DNA of 32,000 nucleotides from positions 2,361 to 34,360 of the forward strand of contig OZ245059.1 in the NCBI GenBank assembly GCA_965224735.1, read 5' to 3'. This document shows, in pieces, positions 2,615 to 26,816 of this stretch (position 1 is the first letter of the stretch; every line of letters starts with the position of its first letter). The position numbers and the translations under genes were made by a program. This DNA is from Robiginitomaculum sp. GTDB taxonomy: Bacteria > Pseudomonadota > Alphaproteobacteria > Caulobacterales > Maricaulaceae. Below the pieces are notes generated by a model. It searched no databases and was not told the origin of the DNA. It saw only the letters and a list, made by a program, of their open reading frames with translations.

Positions 2615-2743
2615 AGCTACCTCCAAAAACGAATCAATTAGGAGCAGTCTTGATAAAAGGCCTTAGGAATGGGTTAATGCGATCCGTCTCCAGTTTCTCT
2701 AATATAAGTATATGTATAGTCTGCTATAGTTTGAGCCTAAATC

Positions 2744-3415: not shown

Positions 3416-3680
3416 CTAGAAACTCCATAAGAATGTAGCCTCCCGTTCTTAATACTTTTCGTTAAATATAGATTAAAGTTCTCACTTTTCATAATTCTAT
3501 ACCAAAGCAGGTAGAAACGGCCAAGTCGCAAAAATTAGATGCGAACGAGCCTTAGAAGTGAACGGGCGGCGACGGCAGACTGTACACATAGTTACCTCTC
3601 CACAATACTCGCCAAAGGCATGGCCAGAGAACCAATAGTGCCAAAACCAATAGTAAAAGTCTAATCATCAAAACAATCCT

Positions 3681-4553
3681 TTATAGTATCCGTTTAATCG
3701 ACGTAATTACTCCTGTGGTTTGTGCAATACGCGCCGCAGCGTCTCTAAGCGGCTCTATCGCGACGCACATATGGTGTGCATTGGCGTGGAGCAACATTTC
3801 TCTATCGCCCATAATCCCCACATGCCCCGTCCAAAAAATTAGATCGCCGCGCACAAGACCTGTCAATTTTTCCGTGATTTCAACGGATGTACCAAGGGTT
3901 GTTTCTTGCATACCCGCATCGCGCGGCGCATCCAGACCGCATGCCCGTAGCGCAGTTTGCACTAAGCCCGAACAGTCAACTCCGTCAGGCGATACACCTC
4001 CCCATATATAAGGGAGGCCAAAATGTAACTCAGCCGCTTCAACAAAATCTGTTGGCTCTTGTCCAAGTTCTACAACATGGTTTTTATGCACATAGCCTAC
4101 ATCAAGCATTCTAATATAATCCCCCTCCTCGTCCTCCGCCAATAATTTTGCGTTCATTGGCAAAGAGGTGCGAATAGCGGATTTAAAATTTGCTTTCAAA
4201 AATGCGGGTGCACGCAAATTGCTGATGCGGTGAGTGGGTTCATAGCGGCTTGGCATGAGCGCCATTTTAGGCACATACCCCACATAGCCTTTTCTGTCCG
4301 CCTGCACTTCTTGACCCCATAGCCACGAACCGTGCAAATCATAAACATCAAATTCACTGCCGATAAGCAGCTGCGTTTCCATCATTGATGCATTCGCAGG
4401 TTTATTGTGTAGCGGCACGACGGGCATACGCACTTGGTAGCGCACGGCAGGAACATAGGTTTTCGCATCTACTTTGCCTTCAAGATACGCGGCAGCCACA
4501 TTTTCATTATAGGCATTTACTCTTGGATCAAGTTTGTTGTCTAATTTGCTCAT
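3681..4553 (-). CDS. NlpC/P60 (C40) family peptidase with N-terminal SH3-like region
   Basis: YIWGGVSPDGVDCSGLVQTALRACG (catalytic Cys) followed by GDLIFWTGHVGIMG...LLHANAHH (His). Confidence 0.85.
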   Translation of the reverse strand: MSKLDNKLDPRVNAYNENVAAAYLEGKVDAKTYVPAVRYQVRMPVVPLHNKPANASMMETQLLIGSEFDVYDLHGSWLWGQEVQADRKGYVGYVPKMALMPSRYEPTHRISNLRAPAFLKANFKSAIRTSLPMNAKLLAEDEEGDYIRMLDVGYVHKNHVVELGQEPTDFVEAAELHFGLPYIWGGVSPDGVDCSGLVQTALRACGLDAPRDAGMQETTLGTSVEITEKLTGLVRGDLIFWTGHVGIMGDREMLLHANAHHMCVAIEPLRDAAARIAQTTGVITSIKRIL

Positions 4554-4557
4554 TAGC

Positions 4558-4950
4558 TCACTTTAATGGCATGACCTTTCTCTGGTCAAGGCGTCTATCA
4601 AGAGTTTGCGCCGCGCGGCAAATGCGGGCGGAAAACGCCGCAAGATAGCGCGAGCCACCCGCTGTTCGTTTGACTAAGACAGAACGTTTATCTCGCAAAT
4701 CTGGGCCACGATCAACAAACCCGTAACCCGTTAAAGTATTAAGCGCACGTGTTATCACTGCTTTGGTCACATTAAGCTGCTCTGCAAGCGAGCGTACTGT
4801 GTGCGGTCCTTCTTCAAGATAAACTGTGGTCAAAAGCGCGAGCTGGCGCGTAGCAAGATCAGGCACATCTGCTAAAACCCCGTTTAAATTAACCTGGTGC
4901 CAAAGCGCAAGCGCTTCTTTGCGATTTAATTTTTCCTGGCATTGTTGCAA
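4558..4950 (-). CDS. MarR-family transcriptional regulator
   Basis: Winged-HTH sequence VRSLAEQLNVTKAVITRALNTLTGYGFVDRGPDLRDKRSVLVKRTAGG. It lies 4 nt upstream of the NlpC/P60 gene, so an operon is likely. Confidence 0.8.
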   Translation of the reverse strand: MQQCQEKLNRKEALALWHQVNLNGVLADVPDLATRQLALLTTVYLEEGPHTVRSLAEQLNVTKAVITRALNTLTGYGFVDRGPDLRDKRSVLVKRTAGGSRYLAAFSARICRAAQTLDRRLDQRKVMPLK

Positions 4951-5103
4951 AATTTACTCCCAAAACAAATCACTATGTATACTGATTCGCACAAAGGTGA
5001 TTCACTCGTCAAGGGGCGGAAGAACATTTACTGCCGATTAACCAATAAGAGGATTAGTAAAAAGAAGAAAGACAAAATTTATAGTAAAAGAGAATATGAC
5101 CAG

Positions 5104-6591
5104 TTACTTAAAGCCTGTATCAAGGTTGGCGCCAATGACAGAATACTCAATAGTGTGCGGAGGTCCTTCCCAGCCTCTTTTGACTTGGGAAAATATTATC
5201 CCAACTCTCTTACTGTCATCTCCAAGCGCAATATAACCGATTGGGGCTGCACCTAGTATATATGAAGGGTCATCATGTTTGAATTTTGCAATACGTTTTT
5301 TCCCCTTGTTCTTTGAGAGAAGAAAGACTGCGGATTGGCGTACCATTTTCATCTTCCACATACTTGTGCTCATCGCTATATCATTGTTTATAGTATAGGT
5401 AAGTATGTCAGACTTATGGTGAATATCACCCGTATTAAAATGAAAATCTTTGCTTGGAGTAATGCCATTACTTTGCATATTTTCGTATATCAGCGCTTGG
5501 TGGTCACGCCAAAAATTAGAGAAATCTGCATCCATGTCCATAGTTGCGGCGCCTTCGCCAGTTCGGAAGACATCCTTCCAAACAACTTTATCTGTTATTA
5601 AATCCTGAATAATTGTTTCAATATGAATTATGCCAGAAGGGCCAGTATCAAAAATAGAAATAAAAGCAATCTTCCCACTTGCATTATAACCTAACGGGCA
5701 AAACTTGTCCGTGATGAAAGGCCGTTGTTTAAACGATGACTTCAACGATGAAAAAGCTTTAAAGCTGGCTGCATCCATATTAAGACACTCAGGAGTGGGT
5801 GTTAATACTATTTTTTTAGTATTTTGGTTTTTAGTATCCTGTTGTGGCTTGATAAACGTTCTAGAGGTTTGATTAATGGATAAAGGTAACTTTATTCGCT
5901 TGTTTGGAGTGCCGGAAAAGGATTGGTCATCCCCATCGGCAAGAAAACTTACGGCTAAACCGTTGTTTGCTGTATTGACTTTAATATCTGTAATGTTATC
6001 GCCAAGAAATCGAGAATCTAAATGACTAATGAATGAAGTTCCAAGATTAATAGAGAATAGCCCTAAATGTGTAAAATGATTACCACCACCGTTAAGATCA
6101 GCGTGGGCATTGTTTATAAAGGGAGCAAAAAACATAGGCTCATTACTTTTGTCTACGCTTTGAATAAGGGTAATATTATCAGGCATCAGTAATATTCTAC
6201 CATAGTCAAATTCACCCCCACCAGTACCCTTATCAATTGTGTACACACCCGAAACATAGCGTGTCCCCTTTCGGTCAGTCCTTACCCGATCAAGGACGAC
6301 GGGCGTTACCTTTTGTTTGTCTTTTAAAAGGATTTGTGGCGGAAGTCCGTCAACGAGTGATTTTGTAATAAAGGCAGTGCGTTCTACCGCGCATTGTTCA
6401 CCGTGTTCACCGTTTATTTGCCAAGTACTATCTTTTCCAAGGCAATCAAATGTGGCCGTATTTACATCGGTTGAAACGCCCTGTCTGGATGCATGTGCGT
6501 CAGGATTTGCAACTTCTTGTTTTGGTTTGCAGGCTACAAATAGGCTTGCGCTAAGCAAGAGGCTCAAGGCGAGAGTAAGTTTTTGCATCAT
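5104..6591 (-). CDS. Large lipoprotein of unknown function
   Basis: 495-aa uninterrupted ORF. Lipobox in MMQKLTLALSLLLSASLFVAC. No recognisable domain. The region looks AT-rich relative to its neighbours. Confidence 0.6.
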   Translation of the reverse strand: MMQKLTLALSLLLSASLFVACKPKQEVANPDAHASRQGVSTDVNTATFDCLGKDSTWQINGEHGEQCAVERTAFITKSLVDGLPPQILLKDKQKVTPVVLDRVRTDRKGTRYVSGVYTIDKGTGGGEFDYGRILLMPDNITLIQSVDKSNEPMFFAPFINNAHADLNGGGNHFTHLGLFSINLGTSFISHLDSRFLGDNITDIKVNTANNGLAVSFLADGDDQSFSGTPNKRIKLPLSINQTSRTFIKPQQDTKNQNTKKIVLTPTPECLNMDAASFKAFSSLKSSFKQRPFITDKFCPLGYNASGKIAFISIFDTGPSGIIHIETIIQDLITDKVVWKDVFRTGEGAATMDMDADFSNFWRDHQALIYENMQSNGITPSKDFHFNTGDIHHKSDILTYTINNDIAMSTSMWKMKMVRQSAVFLLSKNKGKKRIAKFKHDDPSYILGAAPIGYIALGDDSKRVGIIFSQVKRGWEGPPHTIEYSVIGANLDTGFK

Positions 6592-8813: not shown

Positions 8814-9716
8814 TAGTCCGACAGTGTGCTGGTGTTGTGTATAGTGATCTGTCAACCAAGGAGGTTTTATGGGACAAGTATTACACGAAAGCGCCAAGAC
8901 GACGTACATTACGAGAGCAGGGCTACAGCGATCGCAAGCTTCAACCCAAGCATTAGCCTTGCAATACGGGTTGAATGTGAAAACGATTGCGAAATGGCGC
9001 AAACGCGATTTCACGCATGATGTCGCGATGGGGCCAAAGAAACGATCTTCGAGAATGTTGAGCTGTAAGTGTTGAGCATTGAAGAGGAAGCTATGTGTGT
9101 GGCGTTTCGCCAGCATACATTACTGCCTCTTGATGATTGTCTGTATGCTTTGCAAGAGACGCTTCCTCATCCCTCCAGATCCGCTCTACACCGCTGTTAT
9201 CAGCGCCACGGTATAAGCCGTCTCCCCAACCCGAAAAATGACAAACCTGCAAAGAAGGTGTTCAAGACATATCCAATAGGGTATTTTCATGTTGATATTG
9301 CCAAAGTGCGCACAGAGGAAGGGAAACTCTACATGTTTGTTGGCATAGAGCGGACATCGAAATATGCATATGTTGAATTGCACGCGCGGCAAACGAAAAT
9401 GGTTGCTGCAGCATTTTTACGTAAGCTAATCACAACCGTGCCTTATAAAATCCACACCCTTCTTACTGATAACGGGATACAGTTCACCAATCGCAAACAA
9501 GATAAATATGCTGGCATACATATCTTTGATCATGTGTGTCACGAACATGACATCCAGCACCGCCTGACGAAAACCCAGCACCCTTGGACGAATGGACAGG
9601 TGGAACGCATGAACCGTACCCTCAAAGGCCTCACGCCTTACGAATATATTTGCAAAATATCTACAAAGGAGCCACAACGGTTTAACGTAAACCCATACCA
9701 GCACACTGTGGGACTA
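8814..9716 (+). mobile_element. Degenerate IS481-family insertion sequence
   Basis: Terminal inverted repeats TAGTCCGACAGTGTGCTGG (8814-8832) and CCAGCACACTGTGGGACTA (9699-9716), 18/19 complementary, enclose the transposase reading frames. Confidence 0.75.
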
Positions 9717-9746
9717 GGGTCAGGACTCATTAAAGCCAATATATAA
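8869..9746 (+). pseudogene. IS481-family DDE transposase, split by a frameshift with a probable internal deletion
   Basis: The HTH part (8869-9075, ...LALQYGLNVKTIAKWRKR) and the integrase-core part (9069-9746, ...LLTDNGIQFTN...HPWTNGQVERMNRTLK) are in different frames. ERMNRTLK joins directly to GLTPYEYICK, where family members normally carry ~30 more residues. Confidence 0.75.
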
Positions 9747-10173
9747 CGATTGCAGCGATACATATTGTTGAGAAAAAGGTGTGTGCGCACCTATCATAGC
9801 GTGTTGAGACACGTCTCCAGTCTTTGATCCTACCAAACATGTTTTGGGCCTTGTGCCGCTGTTTGTACAAAACCTTATCATATGGGATATGCTTTTTTCG
9901 ATTTCGGCGCGGGGGAATACACGGGGTGATATTGTGCGCGTATAATGCCTCCAAGAGCGCAACACGAAACCAATTTGAATCATAGCCTTTGTCGCCTAAA
10001 AGATGTTGCGCTCTTGGGAGTTGGTCAAGCAATAAACGTGTCCCCTTTATGGCCGCTCATTTGTCCCTCACTGAGCACCATGACAACAGGCCGCCCCGCG
10101 CCATCACAAACCGCATGGAGTTTTGAGTTCAACCCGCCTTTGGTGCGTCTAATACATCGGGGAACATCCCTTT

Positions 10174-10201
10174 TTTAAGCAGACTGGTTTAAGCAGACTG
10201 G
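10174..10201. repeat. 14-bp perfect tandem duplication in the IS5 transposase pseudogene
   Basis: TTTAAGCAGACTGG x2; the 14-bp length shifts the reading frame. Confidence 0.9.
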
Positions 10202-10301
10202 CTGCGGTTCTGTGGGCTTTGAGGTGGGTGGCATCAATTTGCAATTGTTCTGGCACACCATCAAATGTGCTGGGCGCGATAAATATTTTGTTGAATACGC
10301 T

Positions 10302-10325
10302 CATTTTACTCCCCATTTTACTCCA
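10302..10325. repeat. 12-bp tandem duplication in the IS5 transposase pseudogene
   Basis: CATTTTACTCCC / CATTTTACTCCA. Confidence 0.85.
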
Positions 10326-10398
10326 GCGTATAAATCGATTATAAAGTGTTTTATGAGGTCCATATTCTCGGGGAGCATCACGCCATTGGAGGCCTCGC

Positions 10399-10443
10399 TT
10401 GAGTACATGGATTTTGAGCGCATGGATCTTGAGCACATGGATA
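10399..10443. repeat. 15-bp imperfect tandem repeat x3 in the IS5 transposase pseudogene
   Basis: TTGAGTACATGGATT / TTGAGCGCATGGATC / TTGAGCACATGGATA. Confidence 0.85.
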
Positions 10444-10696
10444 ATGCCACTAATGACAGGCAAATCATCTACGCGCGGAACCCCGTGGGGTAAGGAAATA
10501 AGGCTTAATACGTGCCAGCTGGGACTTTGATAGATAAAACAAATCACTCATGATGAAAACTCCTTTGAATGCCAATCAATCACAAATCAAGCAAAATGGG
10601 AATCCCTAAAATTAATAGGTCCTGACCCTAAATAGAGTAAATAGGCTTTGTAAGCCTATTTACAAATGCCAACAATACGAATAGTTTGCAAAAATA

Positions 10697-17438: not shown

Positions 17439-17738
17439 ATGAGATTTATGATTTACACTACAGATAAAGAAGGCGCGGTAGATATTCGCATAGCCTACAG
17501 GGCGGCGCATCTTGACCACCTTTCTGAGAATAAAAAAGTAAAAGTCCTGACAGCAGGGCCATGGCTTGATGATGATAATGAAACGATGAAAGGATCGCTC
17601 ATAATTGTCGAAGCAAATTGCGTAAATTGTGTAACCAAATGGATTGGCCGCGATCCGTATGTTGTTGCGGGCCTCACAGGCAGCGCAAAGATTCATCCCT
17701 TTAATTGGGCAATTGGAGCGCCTTCGTCTTTTACATAA
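17439..17738 (+). CDS. YciI-family protein
   Basis: 99 aa: MRFMIYTTDKEGAVDIRIAYRAAHLDHL...GSLIIVEA...DPYVVAGL, typical YCII-related domain. Confidence 0.8.
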   Translation: MRFMIYTTDKEGAVDIRIAYRAAHLDHLSENKKVKVLTAGPWLDDDNETMKGSLIIVEANCVNCVTKWIGRDPYVVAGLTGSAKIHPFNWAIGAPSSFT

Positions 17739-18129
17739 CCCATGCCATCAAATGTCATAATGATAGAATAGGGTTGCTTTTGGTAAAAAGAATGCATTGT
17801 TGCGGGGAGCCACCAATCACCAATGCCGTCCGTAGCGGTTAGAATAACGGATCCTGACAAAGAATGTTCAAGGGTTGCAGAACTGCGGGTGATGGCATCT
17901 GCTGCTGCTGCTTCCATGCGCTTGATATGGCCGAGCACCAAATAGCCAAATTTAGTCGGGGTGAGGCGACCGTCTTCTTTGGTTAGCAGTGGCGTGCTAA
18001 AATTCTGCTCAAGGGTTTTCTACGCCTGCCGACTGTTGGCTGGCTGATATTCAACCTTTGGCCCGCGCCCGTAAGGCTACCTGTCTCTGCCACAGCAAGA
18101 AAGATAGGGTAATTCGACCAGTTTTTCAT
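17693..18129 (-). pseudogene. LysR-family regulator remnant (frameshifted, 3'-truncated)
   Basis: Reverse-strand ATG at 18129: MKNWSNYPIFLAVAETGSLTGAGQRLNISQPTVGRR. After a frame change near 18022-18030 it continues KTLEQNFSTPLLTKEDGRLTPTKFGYLVLGHIKRMEAAA...VILTATDGIGDWWLPATM. Only ~145 of the ~300 aa expected remain, and the remnant ends against yciI. Confidence 0.7.
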
Positions 18130-18228
18130 ACAAATATGCATATAACAGAGCGGTTAAGAGTCAATATAATTCCTTTTTGAATATTTCTCGTGGCTTCCAG
18201 AGCACATTTATTGGTTGTAAATTATATG

Positions 18229-18257
18229 TTGAATAAACCTTAATAATGTGTTATAAT
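18229..18257 (+). promoter_or_regulatory. Candidate sigma70-type promoter upstream of rhs
   Basis: TTGAAT (18229-18234), a 17-bp spacer, then TGtTATAAT (extended -10, 18249-18257). The predicted start site would fall within or next to the RBS GAGGGA (18261-18266), leaving a very short leader. Confidence 0.3.
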
Positions 18258-18274
18258 TTAGAGGGACGAATATT

Positions 18275-21200
18275 ATGTATCTGAGGAAATCATTTTTAGC
18301 AGGGCTTGTTATAAATTCTTTCTCTGTTGCTTCGACCGCATTTTCAGCTACACCGCCAATAATACAAATTTCAGGGCAAAGAACAACCACCTATGAAAAT
18401 ACTTATGAAACGATAGCACCGTCATCAACAATAACTATGGAAGATAATTCAGGGCATTCCCAGCCACGCACATGGCATTATGAGTTTGTTGGTGATTTTC
18501 AAATAGTTTCTGTGAACGGGCCAAGAGACGATGTGTTTAATAACACCAAAGTTGAGAGATTTGATGATGGGAAGGTTGAGGTTATAACCAATCCACTTGG
18601 CCATCAAAACCGGTTTAAGTATGATAACACCCGAAATTTAATTTCACATACAGACGCCAACGGCGTCATAGATACATTTTCATATGATGGAAAGCTTCTG
18701 GTTGCTTATACCTATGCCGCAGGTTCCGCTCTTTCAGGCACAACAAGGTTGGCATATAACGCTGATGGCAAAATAACTCAGATTAATTTACCCCAGGATC
18801 AAGTTATTAGAGACACTCTTGATGATGAGGGGAATTACACCGATAGAGCCTATACAATCATTGCTCAGATATTCCAAAAAACCAGCTCACAAGGTTTAAA
18901 CAGGCTTTTCAAAAGGAAGGTGGGAGATGGTGGTCGAAACTTACCGCGTGAATTAACCCCATCACACGCAGCGAGTTCTCAAGAAGTAGATAGTCAGGGA
19001 AGATTAATTAAAAGTTATGATTTTTTGGGCGGCATTACAGAATACCGCTATAATGAGTTCGGAAATTTATCAGAAATGAAGCCGGCAGGAGGGGCGGTCA
19101 CACGATTTGAGTATAATGGATTTAATGAGATAGTTCGCAAAAAAAGTACCGATCGGGGTGTAACAACATTTGAGTATGACCAAGCGGGAAACAAAACCAA
19201 GGAAGTTCGTGCAGGGGGTTTCATCATAAAGAGAAAGTATGATGCTTTAAACCGATTGACGAGAAAAGTGTTCAAGCAAAACGGAGTGGATAAAAAAGTT
19301 ACCCGATATGTCTATGATAAGTGTAAAAATGGGATTGGCCGTGTTTGCAAAATTTCGGATTTCAGTGGGGTCACTAAGTTTCGTTATAATCTATTAGGGC
19401 ATTATAAGGCGGTGTCTGTAAAATATGCTGGTGAGGCTAATTTTAACACGGTCCGGTATTTTTATGGCGATGCTGGGCGTCTTGATAAGGTGCGTTATCC
19501 AACAGGGCTAATTGTTAGATACAGGTATTCAGATGCTGGATTTGTTAAAAAAATTACGGGCAGGTACGATACTGGTGAGGATAGGCAAAGGTTTGTTATA
19601 GCCAAAAACATTGAATTTGATCCTTTGTCAGGACAATTAACAAAATTTGTTTATGGCAACGCAATCAAGACAAGGGTTAAGCTTAATAAGGAAGCTGATA
19701 TATCAAAATTGATTGTTCGTAAGGACGGGGTAGTTATGGATAGATCAACTTACAACTATGATAAAAACGGCAATATAACCCACATTAATCGCCTTGACCC
19801 TGAACAAAGCCAAAACTTTTCTTATGATGCTCTTGGCAGATTAGTGGGTGAACAGCGCGGTATAAACAGCCAACAATCAACGTCTGTGTCCTATAGTTAT
19901 GATGCGAGGGGAAATCGTATTCGCAAAACTGATCTGAAAAAAACCAAAACCTATACTTACTCACCAAAAACAAACAGATTAACCCAAATCAACAAACAGG
20001 CTTTGCTCTATGACGCAAGGGGTAATTTGCTTGAGGACCGAGGTGGTAAGCGTGCTTTTTCATACGATGTGACGGGCCGTATGACGGGGTATTATAAGCG
20101 CGGAAAGCTAAAGGCCCGTTATAGCTATAATGCTTTGGGTCAACGCGTTTCAAAAACCATTCACCGCCCTGCAAAGAAAAATGACACCTATAAAAGTCTT
20201 CATTTTTCATACACCCCACGCGGAAAGCTTTTATCTGAATTTGGCCAAAACAGCCGTAATGCACGAACATTTACCAGGGAATATGTCTGGCTTGGCAACA
20301 AGCCTTTAGCGCAAATTGAAAGAACCATTAATAAGAAAGGCAAAACCAAAAAAACCAACATATATTATCTGCATTCAGACCATCTCAATACCCCTCGCTC
20401 TGCTAGCAATCAAAATGGAGAAATTGTTTGGCAATGGAATAGTGATGCTTTTGGCGTAGGAAAAGCCAACCGTGATGTCAATAATAACGGTAAGAAAGTT
20501 GCCATACGTCTACGTTTTCCTGGTCAATATTATGACGTAGAAAGCGGCCTGTCATACAATCACCACCGGGATTATGATCCAAAGATCGGCCGCTATATTC
20601 AACCTGATCCCATTGGGCTGGGCGGCGATGTAAATCCTTATGCCTATGTGGGTAGTAACCCTTTGAGTTACAGTGACCCTAATGGACTAAAGACATGCAC
20701 AGGCAGTAGAATTCAACGCTCAGACAGTTACAACTGCGGCGGTATGAGTAACGTTGAGTGTTTTGGCAATTGCAGCGGTTTTGGTGGACTAGCAAGAACA
20801 ACGAGGGGTTTTTGTGACGAGGGTGGCTGTACCGTAGAGGGCACGAGAAGTACGAATACTCCTGGGCATACATATTTAACATCAAATGTCGTATGCCGCA
20901 ATGCAGGCCTGGTATCCAATGCACAGCAAAAAAACCTTATGGCATGGTTTACCGTACCAAAGTTTTTTCCTTATATTGTCGACGTGCGAACTGGCACAGC
21001 AGAGACAGAGTACTTTGTATCCCATCCTGATACTGGGGTGCCAGGGGGTTTTGTAACCTCAGAATTAACACCTGATGGACTGTCGGGCACAAATGAAACT
21101 GTTCTAGGCAAGCATATATTCCAAGGGACGGTAACCCGTACATTGACAACAGTGAATGGGCAGCTTGTAATTGCTACATTCGGGACTGGAACATCAGATT

Positions 21201-21304
21201 CTGAAACGATGGATGCCTTGAACACTTGGTTAGGGCCTGGTATATTTAATGCATTAGACAAACACGCCGCCGACCGTCTAAGACGAACTTTTTCAGGATG
21301 TTAA
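18275..21304 (+). CDS. RHS/YD-repeat polymorphic toxin with Sec-type signal peptide and unassigned Cys-rich C-terminal domain
   Basis: YD repeats run throughout (FKYDNTRNLISHTDANG, FSYDALGRLV, YSYDARGNRI, LLYDARGNLL, FSYDVTGRMT, YSYNALGQRV). RHS core: YYLHSDHLNTPRSASNQNGEIVWQWNSDAFG...RFPGQYYDVESGLSYNHHRDYDPKIGRYIQPDPIGLGG. PxxxxDPxGL motif PLSYSDPNGL has its DPNGL at nt 20675-20689. The N-terminus MYLRKSFLAGLVINSFSVASTAFSA is signal-peptide-like. Confidence 0.9.
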   Translation: MYLRKSFLAGLVINSFSVASTAFSATPPIIQISGQRTTTYENTYETIAPSSTITMEDNSGHSQPRTWHYEFVGDFQIVSVNGPRDDVFNNTKVERFDDGKVEVITNPLGHQNRFKYDNTRNLISHTDANGVIDTFSYDGKLLVAYTYAAGSALSGTTRLAYNADGKITQINLPQDQVIRDTLDDEGNYTDRAYTIIAQIFQKTSSQGLNRLFKRKVGDGGRNLPRELTPSHAASSQEVDSQGRLIKSYDFLGGITEYRYNEFGNLSEMKPAGGAVTRFEYNGFNEIVRKKSTDRGVTTFEYDQAGNKTKEVRAGGFIIKRKYDALNRLTRKVFKQNGVDKKVTRYVYDKCKNGIGRVCKISDFSGVTKFRYNLLGHYKAVSVKYAGEANFNTVRYFYGDAGRLDKVRYPTGLIVRYRYSDAGFVKKITGRYDTGEDRQRFVIAKNIEFDPLSGQLTKFVYGNAIKTRVKLNKEADISKLIVRKDGVVMDRSTYNYDKNGNITHINRLDPEQSQNFSYDALGRLVGEQRGINSQQSTSVSYSYDARGNRIRKTDLKKTKTYTYSPKTNRLTQINKQALLYDARGNLLEDRGGKRAFSYDVTGRMTGYYKRGKLKARYSYNALGQRVSKTIHRPAKKNDTYKSLHFSYTPRGKLLSEFGQNSRNARTFTREYVWLGNKPLAQIERTINKKGKTKKTNIYYLHSDHLNTPRSASNQNGEIVWQWNSDAFGVGKANRDVNNNGKKVAIRLRFPGQYYDVESGLSYNHHRDYDPKIGRYIQPDPIGLGGDVNPYAYVGSNPLSYSDPNGLKTCTGSRIQRSDSYNCGGMSNVECFGNCSGFGGLARTTRGFCDEGGCTVEGTRSTNTPGHTYLTSNVVCRNAGLVSNAQQKNLMAWFTVPKFFPYIVDVRTGTAETEYFVSHPDTGVPGGFVTSELTPDGLSGTNETVLGKHIFQGTVTRTLTTVNGQLVIATFGTGTSDSETMDALNTWLGPGIFNALDKHAADRLRRTFSGC
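20074..20816 (+). repeat. 743-bp direct repeat, copy A (inside main rhs)
   Basis: Line-by-line comparison with 22384-23126 (offset 2310) shows no mismatch. The first differences are at 20817-20818 versus 23127-23128. Confidence 0.9.
20690..21301 (+). other. C-terminal (post-DPNGL) putative toxin domain of the main RHS, 204 aa, no recognised family
   Basis: It lies after the autoproteolysis-type motif. It has 8 Cys, 6 of them in the first ~47 aa, and the final residue is Cys. Two further variant copies lie downstream. Confidence 0.6.
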
Positions 21305-21305
21305 T

Positions 21306-21782
21306 ATGATGAAAACTAAAATAATTTCTATACAGTATTTGATATTTATTTTACCTGTTATGCTTTTGGCTGGTTGTGGTTATGGCACGGCTCTTAAGTA
21401 TAAACTCGAAGCGCCTGTCAACTATAGGTTAAAAATAACTGCCGATACTTCGCAACAAGCGGAACTTGATCTTAGACAGGCATTTATGCAGGAAAACTTA
21501 CAACTTGTTCGATATCGCCCCTACGATGATATAGATAGAAGTTATTATATATTTCACAGCAGTAGCAATATACATGTCAAATTACTTAATAGTCGGGGCC
21601 ATAAAAGTGCCATTGTTGCAATATATCCCGCCCGGCTCGCCTCTGTTTCATCCAAACTAAGAGCGCAATTGGAACAACGCGAAGAGGCACTCCTGCGTAT
21701 AGAGAAACAGCTAAAACAAACCGATAGTTTCTCCAAATATATACCCTCAGAGTGGGAAAGGGAATACAATATTTATAAGTGA
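21306..21782 (+). CDS. Putative immunity lipoprotein I1 (cognate to main CT)
   Basis: The ATG lies 1 nt after the toxin stop (TGT TAA T ATG), with AGGA 8 nt upstream. Lipobox LLAGC. It is a member of a 5-copy paralog family in this locus. Confidence 0.7.
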   Translation: MMKTKIISIQYLIFILPVMLLAGCGYGTALKYKLEAPVNYRLKITADTSQQAELDLRQAFMQENLQLVRYRPYDDIDRSYYIFHSSSNIHVKLLNSRGHKSAIVAIYPARLASVSSKLRAQLEQREEALLRIEKQLKQTDSFSKYIPSEWEREYNIYK

Positions 21783-21797
21783 AAATTGGTGAGGGCC
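21779..21797 (+). repeat. Cassette junction motif J1
   Basis: GTGAAAATTGGTgAGGGCC, spanning the immunity stop codon and the start of the next cassette. Confidence 0.85.
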
Positions 21798-21864
21798 TGG
21801 CATATTTAATGCATTAGACAAACACGCCGCAGACCGTCTAAGACGAGTTTTCTCAGGATGTTAA
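21793..21864 (+). pseudogene. Toxin-tail stub R1 (last 23 codons plus stop of an rhs CT)
   Basis: GPGIFNALDKHAADRLRRVFSGC* is homologous to 21233-21304. An in-frame TGA precedes it, and there is no start codon. Confidence 0.85.
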
Positions 21865-21865
21865 T

Positions 21866-22363
21866 ATGATAAAAACAATTGTCCGCCTAAAATATTTGGT
21901 CTTTATGTTACCGTTCGCGCTTATGGCTGGATGCGGTTATGATACAGCACTTAAGTACAAAACCAAAGGATCTACCAGCTATAGGTTAAAAATAACTGCC
22001 GAGACCCCGCAACAAGCGGAACTTGATCTTAGACAGGCATTTCTGCAGGAAAACTTACAACTTGTTCGCCATCACCTCTACAATGATATAGATAGAAGTT
22101 ATGCTATCTTTCACAGCAGTAGCTATATATATGTCAAATTACGTAATAGTGAAGGTTTTAGAAGAGCCATTGTTGCAATATATCCCGCCCGGCTCGCCTC
22201 TGTTTCATCCAAACGAAGAGCGCAATTGGAACAACGCGAAGAGGCACTTCTGCGTATAGAGAAACAGCTGAAACAAACCGATAGTTTCTCCAAATATATA
22301 CCCTCAGAATGGGAAAGAGACTACATGCACACCCTCAGAACGGGAAAGCCGCCGCTACAATAA
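21866..22363 (+). CDS. Putative immunity lipoprotein I2 (no full-length toxin partner)
   Basis: Lipobox LMAGC. Paralog of I1. The C-terminus is altered by a 31-bp imperfect duplication (…WERDYMHTLRTGKPPLQ*). Confidence 0.65.
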   Translation: MIKTIVRLKYLVFMLPFALMAGCGYDTALKYKTKGSTSYRLKITAETPQQAELDLRQAFLQENLQLVRHHLYNDIDRSYAIFHSSSYIYVKLRNSEGFRRAIVAIYPARLASVSSKRRAQLEQREEALLRIEKQLKQTDSFSKYIPSEWERDYMHTLRTGKPPLQ

Positions 22364-22369
22364 GTATAA

Positions 22370-22388
22370 GTGAAAATTGGTTAGGGCC
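22370..22388 (+). repeat. Cassette junction motif J2
   Basis: GTGAAAATTGGTTAGGGCC, joined to rhs sequence at GGGCC|GTATGACGGGG. Confidence 0.85.
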
Positions 22389-23126
22389 GTATGACGGGGT
22401 ATTATAAGCGCGGAAAGCTAAAGGCCCGTTATAGCTATAATGCTTTGGGTCAACGCGTTTCAAAAACCATTCACCGCCCTGCAAAGAAAAATGACACCTA
22501 TAAAAGTCTTCATTTTTCATACACCCCACGCGGAAAGCTTTTATCTGAATTTGGCCAAAACAGCCGTAATGCACGAACATTTACCAGGGAATATGTCTGG
22601 CTTGGCAACAAGCCTTTAGCGCAAATTGAAAGAACCATTAATAAGAAAGGCAAAACCAAAAAAACCAACATATATTATCTGCATTCAGACCATCTCAATA
22701 CCCCTCGCTCTGCTAGCAATCAAAATGGAGAAATTGTTTGGCAATGGAATAGTGATGCTTTTGGCGTAGGAAAAGCCAACCGTGATGTCAATAATAACGG
22801 TAAGAAAGTTGCCATACGTCTACGTTTTCCTGGTCAATATTATGACGTAGAAAGCGGCCTGTCATACAATCACCACCGGGATTATGATCCAAAGATCGGC
22901 CGCTATATTCAACCTGATCCCATTGGGCTGGGCGGCGATGTAAATCCTTATGCCTATGTGGGTAGTAACCCTTTGAGTTACAGTGACCCTAATGGACTAA
23001 AGACATGCACAGGCAGTAGAATTCAACGCTCAGACAGTTACAACTGCGGCGGTATGAGTAACGTTGAGTGTTTTGGCAATTGCAGCGGTTTTGGTGGACT
23101 AGCAAGAACAACGAGGGGTTTTTGTG
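22384..23126 (+). repeat. 743-bp direct repeat, copy B (5' part of orphan 1)
   Basis: Identical to 20074-20816. Confidence 0.9.
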
Positions 23127-23629
23127 GTGAGGGTGGCTGTACCGTAGAGGGCACGAGACAACGTACGCCTCCTTCTGCTCCTGGACATATATATTCAACA
23201 TCAAATGTCGTATGCCGCAATGCAGGCCTGGTATCCAATGCACAGCAAAAAAACCTTATGGCATGGTTTACCGTACCAAAGTTTTTTCCTTATATTGTGG
23301 ACGTGCGAACTGGCACAGCTGGTGAAACAAGATATTTTGTAACGCACCCTGATACAGGCGTCCCAGGTGGTTATGTAACTTCAGAACTTTTTTCTGGCGG
23401 GCTGACAGGAAGAAATACAACTGTTGATAATTTGCATTTTTTTGCTGGCACTATCACACGTACACTGACAACAGTGAATGGGCAGCTTGTAATTTCTACG
23501 CTCGGTGTTGGAACATCAGATTTTGTGACGATAGATGCCATAAATAGTTTATTAGGCCCAGGTGTCTTTAATGCACTAGATCGGCATGCTGCCGACCGTC
23601 TAAGAAGGGCTTTCCCCGGATGCCAATAA
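22391..23629 (+). CDS. Orphan rhs C-terminal cassette 1 (last YD repeats, RHS core and a variant CT)
   Basis: 412-aa ORF that starts at an internal Met of the rhs frame (MTGYYKRGKLKARYSYNALGQRV...). It includes DPNGL (22985-22999) and a CT that diverges from the main CT mainly in its last ~100 aa. There is no N-terminal signal or shell. Confidence 0.85.
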   Translation: MTGYYKRGKLKARYSYNALGQRVSKTIHRPAKKNDTYKSLHFSYTPRGKLLSEFGQNSRNARTFTREYVWLGNKPLAQIERTINKKGKTKKTNIYYLHSDHLNTPRSASNQNGEIVWQWNSDAFGVGKANRDVNNNGKKVAIRLRFPGQYYDVESGLSYNHHRDYDPKIGRYIQPDPIGLGGDVNPYAYVGSNPLSYSDPNGLKTCTGSRIQRSDSYNCGGMSNVECFGNCSGFGGLARTTRGFCGEGGCTVEGTRQRTPPSAPGHIYSTSNVVCRNAGLVSNAQQKNLMAWFTVPKFFPYIVDVRTGTAGETRYFVTHPDTGVPGGYVTSELFSGGLTGRNTTVDNLHFFAGTITRTLTTVNGQLVISTLGVGTSDFVTIDAINSLLGPGVFNALDRHAADRLRRAFPGCQ

Positions 23630-24090
23630 TAAATAAAATGCTTGCTCTACGGAACTTTGCCTTCATGCTAACCTTTGTGTGTATTTCTGGATGCGGGTAT
23701 GATGTGGTCTTACAGTACAAAGCGAAAGCATCTGTAGGGTATAGATTGACAATCACCTCAGATACACCTCAACAGGCATCATCCTTTGTTAAACAAACAT
23801 TTTTGTCGGAAGACTTGGAACCCGTCCATCATATTGAATTTGATACAGTCGAAAGGTCTTATATCTATCACAATAGTAGTATGATAATGATCACATTAAA
23901 TCTCGATTTTAAAACAGCAAATATTGCAATATATCCTGCCCGGCTTAACTCTGTTTCATCCAAGCGAAGAGCACAATTGAAACAACGTGAAGAAGCAATA
24001 TTACGTATAAAGCAAGTGCTGGAGAAGTCCGATAGTTTCACCAAATATATACCCTCAGAGTGGGAAAGAGAATACAATATTTATAAGTGA
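23620..24090 (+). CDS. Putative immunity lipoprotein I3 (cognate to orphan 1; most divergent paralog)
   Basis: Lipobox CISGC. Conserved family blocks IYPARLNSVSSKRRAQLKQREEAILRI and DSFTKYIPSEWEREY. An alternative start at 23638 (MLALRNF...) would avoid overlapping the toxin stop. Confidence 0.7.
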   Translation: MPIINKMLALRNFAFMLTFVCISGCGYDVVLQYKAKASVGYRLTITSDTPQQASSFVKQTFLSEDLEPVHHIEFDTVERSYIYHNSSMIMITLNLDFKTANIAIYPARLNSVSSKRRAQLKQREEAILRIKQVLEKSDSFTKYIPSEWEREYNIYK

Positions 24091-24105
24091 AAATTGGTTA
24101 GGGCC
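24087..24105 (+). repeat. Cassette junction motif J3
   Basis: GTGAAAATTGGTTAGGGCC, joined to rhs sequence at GGCCTGGTAT|CCAATGC. Confidence 0.85.
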
Positions 24106-24503
24106 TGGTATCCAATGCACAGCAAAAAAACCTTATGGCATGGTTTACCGTACCAAAGTTTTTTCCTTATATTGTCGACGTGCGAACTGGCAGACAAGGT
24201 TTTACAGAGTACTTTGTATCCCATCCTGATACTGGGGTGCCAGGGGGGTTTGTAACCTCAGAATTAACGCTTGATGGACTGTCGGGCATAAATAAAACTG
24301 TTCCAGGCCGGCATATATTCGCAGGGGAGGTAACCCGTACACTGACAACAGTGAATGGGCAGCTTGTAATTGCTACATTCGGGACTGGAACATCAGATTC
24401 TGAAACAATGGATGTCTTGAACACTTGGTTAGGGCCTGGTATATTTAATGCATTAGACAAACACGCCGCCGACCGCCTAAAACGAGTTTTTTCAGGATGT
24501 TAA
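24102..24503 (+). pseudogene. Orphan rhs CT fragment 2 (last ~130 codons only; ORF from the ATG at 24135)
   Basis: Homologous to 20906-21304 of the main gene: (GLVSNAQQKNL)MAWFTVPKFFPYIVDVRTG...FSGC*. It has no RHS core or DPxGL, and a TAG lies just upstream in frame. Confidence 0.8.
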
Positions 24504-24504
24504 T

Positions 24505-24978
24505 ATGATAAAAAACTATATAACTCAATCGCGGTATTGTACCCTTATTGTGGCCTTCTTTCTGGTAGGATGCGGTTATGATACAATACTTAGGTACAAA
24601 AACGAAGTGCCTGTCAACTATAGGTTAAAAATAACTGCCGATACCCCGCAACAAGCGGAATTTGATCTTAGGCAGGCATTTCTGCAGGAAAACTTACAAC
24701 TCGTTCGCAATCACCTCTACAATGATATAGATAGAAGTTATTCTATCTTTCACAGCAGTAGCCATATATATGTTCAATTACGTAATAGTGAAGGTTTTAG
24801 AAGGCTTCTTGTTGGGGTATATCCTGCCCGGCTCACCTCTGTTTCATCCAAACTAAGAGCGCAATTGAAACAACGCGAAGAGGCAGTCCTGCGTATAGAA
24901 GAAAAACTAAAACAAACCGATAGTTTCACCAAATATATACCCTCAGAGTGGGAAAGAGAATACAATAAGTATAAGTGA
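24505..24978 (+). CDS. Putative immunity lipoprotein I4 (I1-type)
   Basis: Same TGT TAA T ATG coupling as I1. Lipobox FLVGC. Family blocks are conserved. Confidence 0.7.
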   Translation: MIKNYITQSRYCTLIVAFFLVGCGYDTILRYKNEVPVNYRLKITADTPQQAEFDLRQAFLQENLQLVRNHLYNDIDRSYSIFHSSSHIYVQLRNSEGFRRLLVGVYPARLTSVSSKLRAQLKQREEAVLRIEEKLKQTDSFTKYIPSEWEREYNKYK

Positions 24979-24993
24979 AAATTGGTTAGGGCC
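24975..24993 (+). repeat. Cassette junction motif J4
   Basis: GTGAAAATTGGTTAGGGCC, followed by TGGTATATTTAATGC (toxin tail). Confidence 0.85.
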
Positions 24994-25060
24994 TGGTATA
25001 TTTAATGCATTAGACAAACACGCTGCTGACCGTCTAAGACGAGTTTTCTCAGGATGTTAA
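24989..25060 (+). pseudogene. Toxin-tail stub R2
   Basis: GPGIFNALDKHAADRLRRVFSGC*, 72 nt, homologous to 21233-21304. Confidence 0.85.
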
Positions 25061-25061
25061 T

Positions 25062-25559
25062 ATGATAAAAACAATTGTCCGCCTAAAATATTTGGTCTTT
25101 ATTTTACCTGTTATGCTTTTGACTGGATGCGGTTATGATACAGCACTTAAGTACAAAACCAAAGGATCTACCAGCTATAGGTTAAAAATAACTGCCGATA
25201 CCCCGCAACAAGCGGAATTTGATCTTAGGCAGGCATTTCTGCAGGAAAACTTACAACTCGTTCGCCATCACCTCTACGATGATATAGATAGAAGTTATGC
25301 TATCTTTCACAGCAGTAGCTATATATATGTTCAATTACTTAATAGTGAAGGTTTTAGAAGTGCCATTGTTGCAATATACCCTGCCCGGCTCGCCTCTGTT
25401 TCATCCAAACTAAGAGCGCAATTGGAACAACGCGAAGAGGCACTCCTGCGTATAGAGAAACAGCTAAAACAAACCGATAGTTTCTCCAAATATATACCCT
25501 CAGAGTGGGAAAGAGACTACATGCACACCCTCAGAACGGGAAAGCCGCCGCTACAATAA
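25062..25559 (+). CDS. Putative immunity lipoprotein I5 (I2-type, mosaic)
   Basis: Lipobox LLTGC. It has the same derived C-terminus as I2. The signal-peptide segment ILPVMLL matches I1 rather than I2. Confidence 0.65.
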   Translation: MIKTIVRLKYLVFILPVMLLTGCGYDTALKYKTKGSTSYRLKITADTPQQAEFDLRQAFLQENLQLVRHHLYDDIDRSYAIFHSSSYIYVQLLNSEGFRSAIVAIYPARLASVSSKLRAQLEQREEALLRIEKQLKQTDSFSKYIPSEWERDYMHTLRTGKPPLQ

Positions 25560-25565
25560 GTATAA

Positions 25566-25584
25566 GTGAAAATTGGTTAGGGCC
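25566..25584 (+). repeat. Cassette junction motif J5
   Basis: GTGAAAATTGGTTAGGGCC, followed by TGGTATATTTGATGC (toxin tail). Confidence 0.85.
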
Positions 25585-25667
25585 TGGTATATTTGATGCA
25601 TTAGACAAACACGCCGCAGACCGTCTAAGACGAGTTTTCTCAGGATGTTAATATGATGAAAAATTAG
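25580..25667 (+). pseudogene. Toxin-tail stub R3 plus truncated I1-type immunity start (array end)
   Basis: GPGIFDALDKHAADRLRRVFSGC* is followed by ATG ATG AAA AAT TAG. I1 begins ATGATGAAAACT, and homology is lost at ~25663. Confidence 0.8.
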
Positions 25668-25785: not shown

Positions 25786-26268
25786 TTAAGTCAGGCTTGC
25801 GATCAGCCCCGCGCTTGCTATCTCTAGGAGATCCAAGGCGTGATCAAAACCATTCAACTCACCATGATAGGGATCAGGAACCTCGGTGAGGCCAGCTGTT
25901 TTATCTGCGTGCCCATAGCTTAAAAATAGCTTTAATTTCTGGCGGTAGGCCTGCGGGCAAGACATTTTTAAATCACGTAAATTAGTACTATCCATGGCCA
26001 GGATAAGATCGAATGTGCCAAAATCGAGCTTTTCTATTTTGCGGGCGGTTTGGCCTGCAAAAGAATAACTCCGGCGCTCGCCTGTCGCTTGGGCGCGCGG
26101 ATCAGGCGGCTCGCCTTGATGCCATGCGCCCGTTCCTGCACTGTCTATGCGAAGAGTAAGGCCCGCGTTTTTGGCAAATTTTCTAAACACAACTTCGGCG
26201 GTCGGGGAACGGCAAATATTACCAAGGCAGACAAATAAAACGGAGTTTGGCGCAGTGTCTCGCGGCAT
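25786..26268 (-). CDS. Low-molecular-weight protein tyrosine phosphatase
   Basis: P-loop VLFVCLGNICRSPTAE (CX5R-S) and the DPY loop VPDPYHG. It starts 2 nt after the response-regulator stop. Confidence 0.85.
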   Translation of the reverse strand: MPRDTAPNSVLFVCLGNICRSPTAEVVFRKFAKNAGLTLRIDSAGTGAWHQGEPPDPRAQATGERRSYSFAGQTARKIEKLDFGTFDLILAMDSTNLRDLKMSCPQAYRQKLKLFLSYGHADKTAGLTEVPDPYHGELNGFDHALDLLEIASAGLIASLT

Positions 26269-26270
26269 TT

Positions 26271-26816
26271 TTATTTTGGAGCGCGCTTGGCAAGAATACG
26301 TTGTAACGTGCGGCGGTGCATGTTGAGACGGCGCGCAGTTTCTGAAACATTCTTATCGCAAAGCTCATATATACGCTGAATGTGCTCCCATCGCACACGA
26401 TCTGCCGACATTGGATTTTCAGGCGGGCTTGGTTTGACATCAATTGATAGCAAGGATTTACACACATCATCTGCGTCTGCAGGCTTGGCCAAATAATCAA
26501 CAGCCCCGCTTTTAATGGCCGATACTGCAGTTGCAAGATTGCCATATCCTGTAAGCATGACCATACGGCAATCTGGGCGGTGCTCGTGCAGCAGCACAAC
26601 AATGTCCAGCCCGCTCCCATCATTAAGGCGCATGTCCAAAACGGCGAAGGCTGGTGGATTTGATTTAACGATTGCAGTTGCCTGGGCAATGCTTTGGGCG
26701 AGGACTACATCAAACCCGCGGGCTTCAAGGGCGCGCCCAAGCCGGATGCGAAACGCTTGGTCATCTTCTAAAACCATGAGTTTATTGTCTTGTGGTATTT
26801 TGTATTGTATGCTCAC
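26271..26816 (-). CDS. ActR/RegA/PrrA-type response regulator
   Basis: Receiver domain (LVLEDD...AVLDMRLNDGSGL...MLTGYGNLATAVSAIKSGAVDYLAKP) and the C-terminal Fis-like HTH NVSETARRLNMHRRTLQRILAKR, characteristic of RegA/ActR. Confidence 0.85.
   Translation of the reverse strand: MSIQYKIPQDNKLMVLEDDQAFRIRLGRALEARGFDVVLAQSIAQATAIVKSNPPAFAVLDMRLNDGSGLDIVVLLHEHRPDCRMVMLTGYGNLATAVSAIKSGAVDYLAKPADADDVCKSLLSIDVKPSPPENPMSADRVRWEHIQRIYELCDKNVSETARRLNMHRRTLQRILAKRAPK

Follow-up and report, generated by a model that had tools for sequence, protein, structure and literature searches.

The 32-kb window analysed here (32,000 nucleotides of a Robiginitomaculum sp. genome, assembly GCA_965224735.1, contig OZ245059.1, positions 2,361 to 34,360) contains, at window positions 18275–25667, an island built around a single rhs gene, which is very probably a polymorphic-toxin/immunity locus. 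We favour, with a little more than even confidence, a reading in which the RHS protein is exported by the Sec pathway independently of any type VI secretion system (T6SS), carries a C-terminal toxin domain (the tip) with a START-like fold, whose site of action is the cell envelope and whose target is probably a lipid-linked molecule, and is neutralized by the lipoproteins encoded behind it. The architecture of the locus is ordinary and follows the textbook rhs layout. As judged from database searches, its toxin-tip family appears widespread yet uncatalogued, and its lipoprotein immunity family appears tiny; both seem essentially undescribed.

The main gene encodes an intact protein of 1009 aa whose YD/RHS repeats are matched by Pfam RHS_repeat (E = 1e-36, eight stretches) and TIGR01643 (E = 8e-29, seven stretches), followed by an RHS-associated core (TIGR03696, E = 6e-24, aa 738–805). 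The core ends in QPDPIGL...SDPNGL, a motif from which autoproteolysis is predicted, and the remaining 204 aa (K806–C1009) form the tip. At the N-terminus, MYLRKSFLAGLVINSFSVASTAFS/A shows the n/h/c organization of a Sec signal, and this signal is kept in a 77%-identical RHS protein at another locus (L001, see below). No PAAR, VgrG or other T6SS gene was found in the window among the open reading frames (ORFs) scanned or those with precomputed Pfam matches, the 1009-aa protein has no Pfam match to a PAAR or VgrG-interaction domain, and the surroundings of rhs are housekeeping genes and insertion sequence (IS) fragments. A preliminary description of this DNA, made from its letters alone, had presented the Sec signal in place of a PAAR/T6SS context as a departure from the textbook case. 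The signal and the lack of T6SS genes in the window both hold, but a Sec-signal RHS protein is less exceptional than that description implied, because it belongs to a catalogued class: RHS is entered under ‘T2SS/Sec-dependent’ (T2SS, type II secretion system) in Table 1 of Zhang et al. (2012).

Profile alignment places the conserved toxin unit in the last ~150 residues of the protein (aa ~860–1009), while the Cys-rich stretch before it (806–859) is a lineage-specific linker, not kept beyond close relatives. Pfam and NCBIfam searches of all eight ORFs returned nothing in the tip region, which was likewise unmatched by Pfam in 44 full-length family members and in 34 sequences of the domain alone (the latter at E ≤ 10), and neither PHROGs nor a PDB sequence search (phmmer and profile) gave a match to the tip. 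A word-indexed homology search with the 204-aa tip returned only three proteins, hinting at a near-unique sequence; this view was overturned by an exhaustive profile search of 1.84 billion representatives, in which at least 257 clusters (50% identity) matched at E ≤ 1e-3 and 73 at E ≤ 1e-10. Of 148 surveyed matches, 120 have the domain no more than 25 aa from the C-terminus and 41 have a DPxG[LTWYF] motif ahead of it, so far as sequence can tell the behaviour of a polymorphic-toxin tip. RHS proteins make up 16 of the 44 full-length members scanned. Other carriers are two-partner secretion (TPS) proteins of the TpsA type with an adjacent ShlB-type TpsB, HK97-type phage portals, a 2234-aa SpvB/TcdB/FG-GAP/RHS fusion (P0116) bearing the same tip, and proteins reduced to a signal peptide, a linker and the toxin (P0018; locus L012).

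The family shares the motif GH-DY..N.VC ... SRF.VP ... PGG.V.T..DGL...N.TT..H.F.G.V.R ... T.G.G ... N...GP.IF..D ... PGC-end. In the family alignment H865, P895, G925, N940, H947 and N983 are invariant, Y867, C874, R955 and D995 are conserved in more than 90% of members (C874 in 96%), and T942 and the terminal C1009 are also among the conserved residues, a terminal Cys being present in 61 of 93 complete domains. The conservation of polar residues holds across sequences that are only ~25–40% identical.

Portal proteins of the HK97 type fused C-terminally to the same toxin domain were seen at two loci, L020 (1174–4477; IMG/VR UViG_3300027997_000102) and L010 (3533–6054). Behind the fusions stand small membrane-anchored proteins, from one to three in tandem. 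L010 also has, downstream, a portal C-terminal fragment of 113 aa that has been displaced, and C-terminal displacement appears there to act on a phage structural gene; at L020 three anchored paralogues stand in tandem behind the fusion, mirroring the array in the window.

A first AlphaFold2 (AF2) model of the tip, built on a five-sequence alignment, reached a mean predicted local distance difference test score (pLDDT) of 51.8 and was not taken into the fold search. After trimming to the conserved core and deepening of the alignment to 34 sequences, a second model reached pLDDT 92.5 with a predicted TM-score (pTM) of 0.84. It consists of one strand (E15–24), one to two short helices (H32–42), a five-strand antiparallel meander (E62–122) and a 29-residue C-terminal helix (H127–155). 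This order of elements, beta-alpha-(alpha)-beta5/6-long alpha, agrees with the beta-alpha-alpha-beta6-alpha topology of the helix-grip, in which the long C-terminal helix packs on the sheet. Foldseek against the PDB gave 26 matches at E ≤ 1e-3 (best E 1.7e-5, TM-scores up to 0.61), overwhelmingly helix-grip proteins: Ara h 8 and other PR-10/Bet v 1 allergens, the PYR/PYL abscisic-acid receptors, AHSA1-like proteins and other START/SRPBCC members, with lachrymatory-factor synthase and the TcmN ARO/CYC cyclase just below the cut-off (E about 2e-3). We are fairly confident, on the strength of this model, that the tip core adopts a START/Bet v 1-like helix-grip fold. The likeness is one of fold only, without a sequence-profile relation. 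The preliminary description had judged the tip and the lipoproteins unassignable to any family from sequence, and had proposed profile searches, structure prediction and Foldseek; the sequence profiles were indeed empty for both, whereas the tip can be assigned at the level of fold and has the many relatives described above.

The spacing of the conserved residues is i, i+2 in the strands (H865/Y867; N940/T942) and i, i+4, i+8, i+12 along the C-terminal helix (N983, G987, F991, D995), and from this periodicity we infer that the conserved polar residues line the pocket between sheet and helix. The catalytic domain of Rieske oxygenases is a helix-grip with a 2-His-1-carboxylate site, and the two His together with an Asp on the long helix recall that site, an analogy that we regard as a lead. 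That the toxin is a lipid-directed enzyme is plausible from the model, if somewhat short of an even chance. A tip that is no enzyme, and that extracts, sequesters or mis-delivers a membrane lipid or carrier or perturbs the membrane, with the lipoproteins blocking its pocket or membrane face, seems unlikely to us: the invariant His/His/Asn/Asn and near-invariant Tyr/Arg/Asp look catalytic or metal/phosphate-binding rather than like a generic hydrophobic pocket. It does find support in the structural matches, START/Bet v 1 proteins being mostly ligand binders or carriers (review PMC13525633), and in the reported precedent of a non-enzymatic envelope effector, BteO (PMC12541434).

The tip gene is followed by five ORFs of 158, 165, 156, 157 and 165 aa that are 54–93% identical to one another, candidate 3 being the most divergent (~54% to the others). 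All five have a positively charged N-terminus, a hydrophobic core and a lipobox pattern (residues 20–25, the Cys at residue 23–25), from which lipidation is predicted, and candidate 1 is presumed to be cognate to the main tip. The immunity family in the window counts only 13 clusters among 5.8 billion proteins, all of which keep the lipobox followed by G-Y; C-G-Y is invariant in the family alignment, with CGY(D/G) after the lipobox. None of the candidates has a match in Pfam (including the Imm*, SUKH and SmpA_OmlA/BamE-like families), NCBIfam, PHROGs or, by sequence, the PDB. The preliminary description had proposed an undescribed toxin-immunity family here, and no confident match to a described pair was found. 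In candidates 2 and 5 (22300–22363 and 25496–25559) we also observed an imperfect internal duplication of ~33 nt (ACCCTCAGAATGGGAAAG / ACCCTCAGAACGGGAAAG), which swaps the usual ...EYNIYK end for ...DYMHTLRTGKPPLQ and so lengthens the C-terminus, the ancestral stop and tail remaining just downstream.

A small gene lies directly 3′ of the toxin in every locus examined. Toxin-to-lipoprotein adjacency recurs at L001, L002/L012, L003, L017 and L018, and in every context examined the downstream gene encodes a lipobox, a signal peptide or a membrane anchor. Two further downstream families are distinguishable (L007~L011 and L009~L010~L020), giving three sequence-unrelated families in all. We considered a single broad immunity superfamily and rejected it, since the window lipoproteins show no homology to the distant anchored proteins in hidden Markov model (HMM) comparison (hhalign probability 0.2%).

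Several variants of the toxin/immunity pairing were met among the relatives. At L012 (5121–5999, the Robiginitomaculum metagenome-assembled genome (MAG) GCA_002732685.1; also L002, L013 and L014) a small toxin gene is interrupted by an in-frame TAA after codon 51, in several independent assemblies. The lipoprotein immunity gene next downstream is intact. The toxin gene is either read through or a pseudogene that has been retained along with its immunity partner. At L017 (771–1769, Robiginitomaculum NORP227) a signal-peptide protein of 332 aa, which has a Gly-rich linker and an unrelated C-terminus ending in ...PPGC, precedes a toxin-tail stub and an orphan lipoprotein immunity gene (2793–3266), the latter ending in ...FLPGC, which hints at a local family of small Sec-secreted toxins sharing a C-terminal PGC. 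At L018 (2761–6306, JGI 3300026519) a 200-aa, N-terminally truncated toxin (P0016) and its lipoprotein lie behind a DUF6973 protein and two small unannotated ORFs, which may be another toxin/immunity set of the same island.

Four independent lines of evidence point to the envelope as the site of action, which we consider likely from sequence features. First, Sec signals occur also on unrelated full-length carriers (P0071, P0118, P0116, P0018). Second, the tip holds eight cysteines, with C874 conserved and a terminal Cys frequent, against one Cys pair only in the shell. Third, every member of the window immunity family keeps its lipobox. Fourth, the unrelated downstream families still carry a lipobox, signal peptide or membrane anchor. 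The last of these also bears on a cytoplasmic tip, for example a two-His nuclease or RNase, with lipoproteins that have some other role or intercept the toxin before entry. The two invariant histidines would suit such a tip, and RNase activity has been claimed for some PR-10 proteins. Phage portal fusions, too, point to a toxin that enters along with injected material. RNase A-like chemistry is predicted by Zhang et al. (2012) for several tips with two His, one of them being Ntox43, the C-terminus of P. aeruginosa RhsT, which like our tip is an alpha+beta domain with two conserved His and rides on Sec-signal and TcdB/TcaC-type RHS carriers. Compared by description only, however, Ntox43 differs in being described as anti-eukaryotic, never with adjacent immunity genes, and no alphaproteobacterial case of it is reported; the tip is matched by none of the nuclease or Ntox models of Pfam, a conserved Cys pair and Cys-rich linker suit an oxidizing compartment, and all downstream genes examined, from three unrelated families, encode exported or anchored proteins. 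We therefore hold a cytoplasmic tip to be improbable.

In the envelope reading, which we prefer, the Sec signal would carry the small RHS/YD shell over the inner membrane without a T6SS spike. In the periplasm, or at a membrane face of the target cell envelope, the pocket of the tip would then bind a lipid-linked, hydrophobic molecule, for instance a phospholipid, lipopolysaccharide (LPS) or an undecaprenyl-linked precursor, and probably alter it chemically or cleave it. The tethered lipoproteins, facing the periplasm, would bind cognate tips and so may protect both against the cell's own toxin in transit and against that of siblings. Taken to its full extent, the proposal is of a new toxin class, in which a START fold has been recruited as a periplasmic enzyme with a His/His/Asp(+Asn/Arg/Tyr) pocket that destroys or modifies one of these lipid-linked intermediates (again undecaprenyl-linked precursor, phospholipid or LPS), is delivered by several routes that avoid the T6SS (in a Sec-RHS cocoon, by TpsA/TpsB, fused to a phage portal, or behind no more than a signal peptide) and is countered by lipoprotein or anchored immunity; this we offer tentatively, as less likely than not.

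Some observations weigh against the envelope reading. A T6SS may be encoded elsewhere in the genome, our view being limited to the 32-kb window. The reading supplies no route by which a Sec-exported RHS protein would leave a Gram-negative cell and enter its target, a gap likewise noted for bacterial teneurin-like shells in Gram-negatives (PMC13018210), and the portal fusions are hard to square with purely periplasmic delivery. At E ≤ 10, 34 domain sequences gave no sequence-profile link to the SRPBCC families of Pfam, and because START domains are mostly non-enzymatic binders, catalysis is a guess.

The island itself is a mosaic of repeats (Table 1). Its repeat families are 68–100% identical and so not due to chance. 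The main RHS and the long orphan share a perfect 743-bp repeat, are the same through the core and diverge from aa ~848, their tip cores being 77% identical. The short orphan ORF starts past the strand that bears H865, Y867 and C874 and therefore cannot be a complete domain alone. Directly 3′ of every immunity gene stands TATAAGTGAAAATTGGTTAGGGCC, and the next element is joined at GGGCC(T/G). Three of the elements so joined are toxin tails; of the other two, one is the RHS core at 20074 and one the toxin middle at 20906. Each join has a short identical counterpart in the main gene, and tandem duplication has copied a 557-bp basic unit made up of a tail stub and an immunity gene. The orphan cassettes, together with the surplus immunity genes, may form a reservoir, new cassettes being joined at the recurring GGGCC(T/G) microhomology and the 743-bp repeat allowing homologous replacement of the expressed tip. 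The elements lie at or within a few bases of the positions given in the preliminary description, which had recognized the 1009-aa YD-repeat protein, its DPxGL-type motif and 204-aa C-terminal domain, five paralogous lipobox proteins, long (412-aa) and short (122-aa) orphans and a truncated sixth immunity start, between yciI and an operon of a low-molecular-weight protein tyrosine phosphatase (LMW-PTP) and a regulator. All of these stand, and its interpretation as a main rhs gene with orphan C-terminal (CT)/immunity modules is borne out by the repeats, orphans, stubs and five paralogues; the three toxin-tail stubs that it measured at 72 bp are present too, but their size is nearer 78 nt.

The same array could be taken for a decaying relic in which the product of the main gene has ceased to be secreted or to act and the copies drift, given the stop codons in the stubs, the truncated sixth immunity gene, a fragmented LysR-type regulator upstream and the in-frame TAA in the homologous small toxin of another Robiginitomaculum MAG. 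This is quite improbable. The ORFs of the 1009-aa protein, the 412-aa orphan and the five lipoproteins are all unbroken, the signal, the core motif and the invariant residues are conserved, a promoter-like site and a ribosome-binding site are present (the candidate, GAGGGA, lies 8 nt 5′ of the rhs ATG), and 100% identity over 743 bp indicates recent gene conversion or duplication, not drift.

Judged from its sequence, the perfect repeat would permit a deletion of 2310 bp by which the expressed shell would be joined to the orphan tip. A 1011-aa RHS protein (P0012) of just this make-up, main shell with orphan tip, is present in a short-read assembly of the same locus from the same population (L006, 8614–11649; ENA ERZ25083849 NODE_1305), with the segment absent from it (main tip and immunity genes 1 and 2) on separate small contigs (L004, L005) at similar coverage. 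We did not accept this fusion as proof of tip switching; it is either an assembly collapse over the 743-bp repeat or a real recombinant subpopulation, collapse being the simpler explanation.

That the RHS/lipoprotein module is mobile follows from L001 (1–8176; Logan SRR24957188), a Tn3-family transposon that is complete, with tnpA, a resolvase gene and a gene for a PRiA4_ORF3 protein between terminal inverted repeats of 52 nt that are 92% complementary. As cargo it carries the genes for a lipoprotein of the window immunity family and for a Sec-signal RHS protein of 1016 aa, which has the same tip as the window RHS and is 77% identical to it. The inverted repeat of this transposon was sought in the window and is absent there, and the window copy is not obviously transposon-borne. 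A tblastn search of curated plasmid and phage collections gave no match. The locus comes from a marine Robiginitomaculum, a genus placed in the Maricaulales (Alphaproteobacteria), and the close toxin/immunity subfamily seems nearly confined to this group: a single genome among 185,579 species representatives matched, another Robiginitomaculum MAG, which holds just a toxin-tail stub and an orphan lipoprotein. In addition, a partial protein of 642 aa from a Robiginitomaculum sp. MAG (MEE9272585.1) is 100% identical to RHS aa 1–642 and ends inside the 743-bp repeat, where a contig built from short reads would be expected to stop.

An RHS protein might also be aimed at a eukaryotic host or grazer, in the manner of Tc-type BC components or RhsT, with the lipoproteins as accessory or surface proteins. 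The SpvB/TcdB-FG-GAP-RHS fusion in the family (P0116) fits this idea, and the genes recur as exact copies in GCA_044240345.1, a highly fragmented and possibly host-associated assembly whose contig numbers exceed 11 million. We regard it as the least probable of the alternatives considered: Pfam detected no SpvB/TcdB_mid propeller in the window RHS and there is no TcA-like gene near it, the same pairing of toxin and small exported protein occurs with TpsA/TpsB and phage carriers, and orphan tips each with a variant paralogue, stubs and surplus paralogues are the signature of toxin/immunity diversification.

Colicin M/Cmi, TelC/TipC and the T6SS Tle phospholipases with Tli are envelope-acting toxins with exported immunity, and they offer an analogy for an extracytoplasmic toxin met by membrane-tethered or periplasmic immunity, the Tli lipoproteins included; their folds are unrelated to the tip, for which a lipid target is a proposal. 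Classical rhs loci (E. coli, Salmonella, Serratia, Dickeya) share with the window the YD shell, the DPxGL core, the variable tip with its small cognate gene, the downstream modules of orphan core fragment, tip and immunity gene, and a long identical repeat permitting tip replacement. The window differs in having a Sec signal instead of a PAAR/VgrG/EagR context, a small shell (1009 aa), a START-like tip rather than a nuclease, deaminase or ADP-ribosyltransferase (ART), and immunity proteins that are lipoproteins, not cytoplasmic. Displacement of rhs C-termini and orphan CT/immunity arrays have reportedly been described before, in work by Jackson in 2009 and Koskiniemi in 2013.

Closer in its carrier is a group formed by the Sec/‘T2SS’ RHS proteins of Zhang et al. 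(2012), the bacteriocin Bcn-A of X. perforans, WapA of B. subtilis and S. suis, and teneurin-like proteins (PMC13018210), which share with the window signal-peptide YD shells, polymorphic tips, adjacent immunity genes and independence of a T6SS. Released RHS toxins exist, since Bcn-A was recovered from culture supernatants (PMC7259588), but Bcn-A needs accessory ORFs that the window lacks. Unlike WapA, the window protein is Gram-negative, and its tip family differs from those of the group; compared with teneurin-like proteins, the window RHS is without TTR, FN-plug, NHL and TIP modules by Pfam, and TEN_YD-shell reaches only E = 0.09, on the orphan.

For the tip itself, the START/Bet v 1/SRPBCC superfamily shares the predicted topology and supplies all top structural matches, whereas the tip has its own invariant polar residues and Cys pair and stands C-terminally on secreted toxin carriers. 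The catalogue of Zhang et al. (2012) has no helix-grip tip, and Imm65 is its only lipoprotein immunity protein. A START-like helix-grip tip is mentioned in one line by Burroughs, Nicastro & Aravind (2025, eLife; PMC12419801), on lipobox-cystatin carriers in Bacteroidota, and a 2026 review of bacterial START proteins (PMC13525633) repeats this case as the only toxin-tip example. There, too, the helix-grip is proposed as a lipid-directed tip with lipoprotein immunity (LP+Imm-Jellyroll and LP+Imm-BamE, LP standing for lipoprotein); compared by description only, it differs in its carrier (lipobox-cystatin vs RHS/TpsA/portal) and phylum. Thus the idea of a helix-grip toxin tip has computational precedent and no characterized toxin/immunity pair matches, the literature searched containing no experimentally characterized member of this family or any START-fold interbacterial toxin.

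If true, a polymorphic-toxin tip with a START fold and an invariant polar pocket would bring a new fold and probably a new envelope target. Polymorphic-toxin tips have yielded new enzymology, including base-editing deaminases, ARTs, (p)ppApp synthetases and lipid II phosphatases. With a 1009-aa shell and a 150-aa tip, the system is small enough to be a practical model for T6SS-free delivery by signal-peptide RHS/teneurin-like shells, and with three variants of the tip and five of the immunity protein at a single locus it offers a natural panel of cognate and non-cognate pairs. The Tn3-borne copy and the phage portal fusions show horizontal spread of the module.

Table 1. Features of the rhs island and its immediate flanks (window coordinates).
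Feature	Position	Strand	Basis or remark
YCII-family gene, left flank	17439–17738		ORF/Pfam
Two sigma-70-like promoter matches, upstream of rhs	18142–18257	+	ATAACA-17-TATAAT; TTGAAT-17-TATAAT with TG; consensus matches only
Main rhs gene, intact, 1009 aa	18275–21304	+	RHS_repeat 1e-36, RHS 5e-7, TIGR03696 6e-24
Sec-type (signal peptidase I, SPI) signal peptide, aa 1–24, MYLRK / hydrophobic core / AFS-A cleavage	18275–18346	+	Read from sequence
Direct repeat copy A, 743 bp, perfect (copy B 22384–23126)	20074–20816	+	Zero mismatches at offset 2310
RHS-associated core domain, aa 738–805, DPIGL ... DPNGL autoproteolysis-type motifs	20486–20689	+	TIGR03696
Cys-rich linker of tip, aa 806–859	20690–20851	+	Cys 808, 821, 829, 833, 847, 852; low-confidence model
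Toxin core domain, aa ~860–1009	20852–21301	+	Predicted START/Bet v 1-like helix-grip fold
Lipoprotein immunity candidate 1, 158 aa, lipobox LAGC	21306–21782	+	Starts 2 nt past rhs stop
Toxin-tail stub 1, last ~25 toxin codons, in-frame TGA	21786–21864	+	Repeat analysis
Lipoprotein immunity candidate 2, 165 aa, lipobox MAGC	21866–22363	+	ORF map; 92.7% identical to candidate 5
Long orphan rhs-CT cassette (ORF 22391–23629, 412 aa)	22384–23629	+	Last 208 aa of RHS shell/core plus complete variant tip
Lipoprotein immunity candidate 3, 156 aa, lipobox ISGC	23620–24090	+	Overlaps long-orphan stop
Short orphan toxin fragment (ORF 24135–24503, 122 aa)	24102–24503	+	Repeat analysis
Lipoprotein immunity candidate 4, 157 aa, lipobox LVGC	24505–24978	+	ORF map
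Toxin-tail stub 2	24983–25060	+	Repeat analysis
Lipoprotein immunity candidate 5, 165 aa, lipobox LTGC	25062–25559	+	ORF map
Toxin-tail stub 3	25574–25651	+	Repeat analysis
Truncated sixth immunity start ATGATGAAAAATTAG, right edge of island	25653–25667	+	Sequence
LMW-PTP gene, right flank	25786–26268	-	ORF/Pfam
Response regulator gene, right flank	26271–26816	-	ORF/Pfam

Directly 5′ of rhs, two short ORFs on the minus strand (17693–18141) are fragments of a LysR-type regulator, with a helix-turn-helix (HTH; LAVAETGSLTGAGQRLNISQPTVGRR) and part of the substrate-binding domain; this broken gene is possibly an insertion scar of the island or its lost regulator. Some 8 kb upstream of the island lie IS remnants, an rve integrase-core ORF (9069–9746, plus strand) and a DUF4096 IS4/5-type transposase fragment (10149–10547, minus strand). 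Further upstream still, on the minus strand at 1553–4553 and 5104–6591, ORFs with the secreted-type domains PAN_4, CAP/SCP and SH3+NlpC/P60 lie beside a MarR regulator, and the same 1553–6591 region includes a 494-aa ORF, without a Pfam match, in the lowest-GC patch of the window (0.38–0.40).

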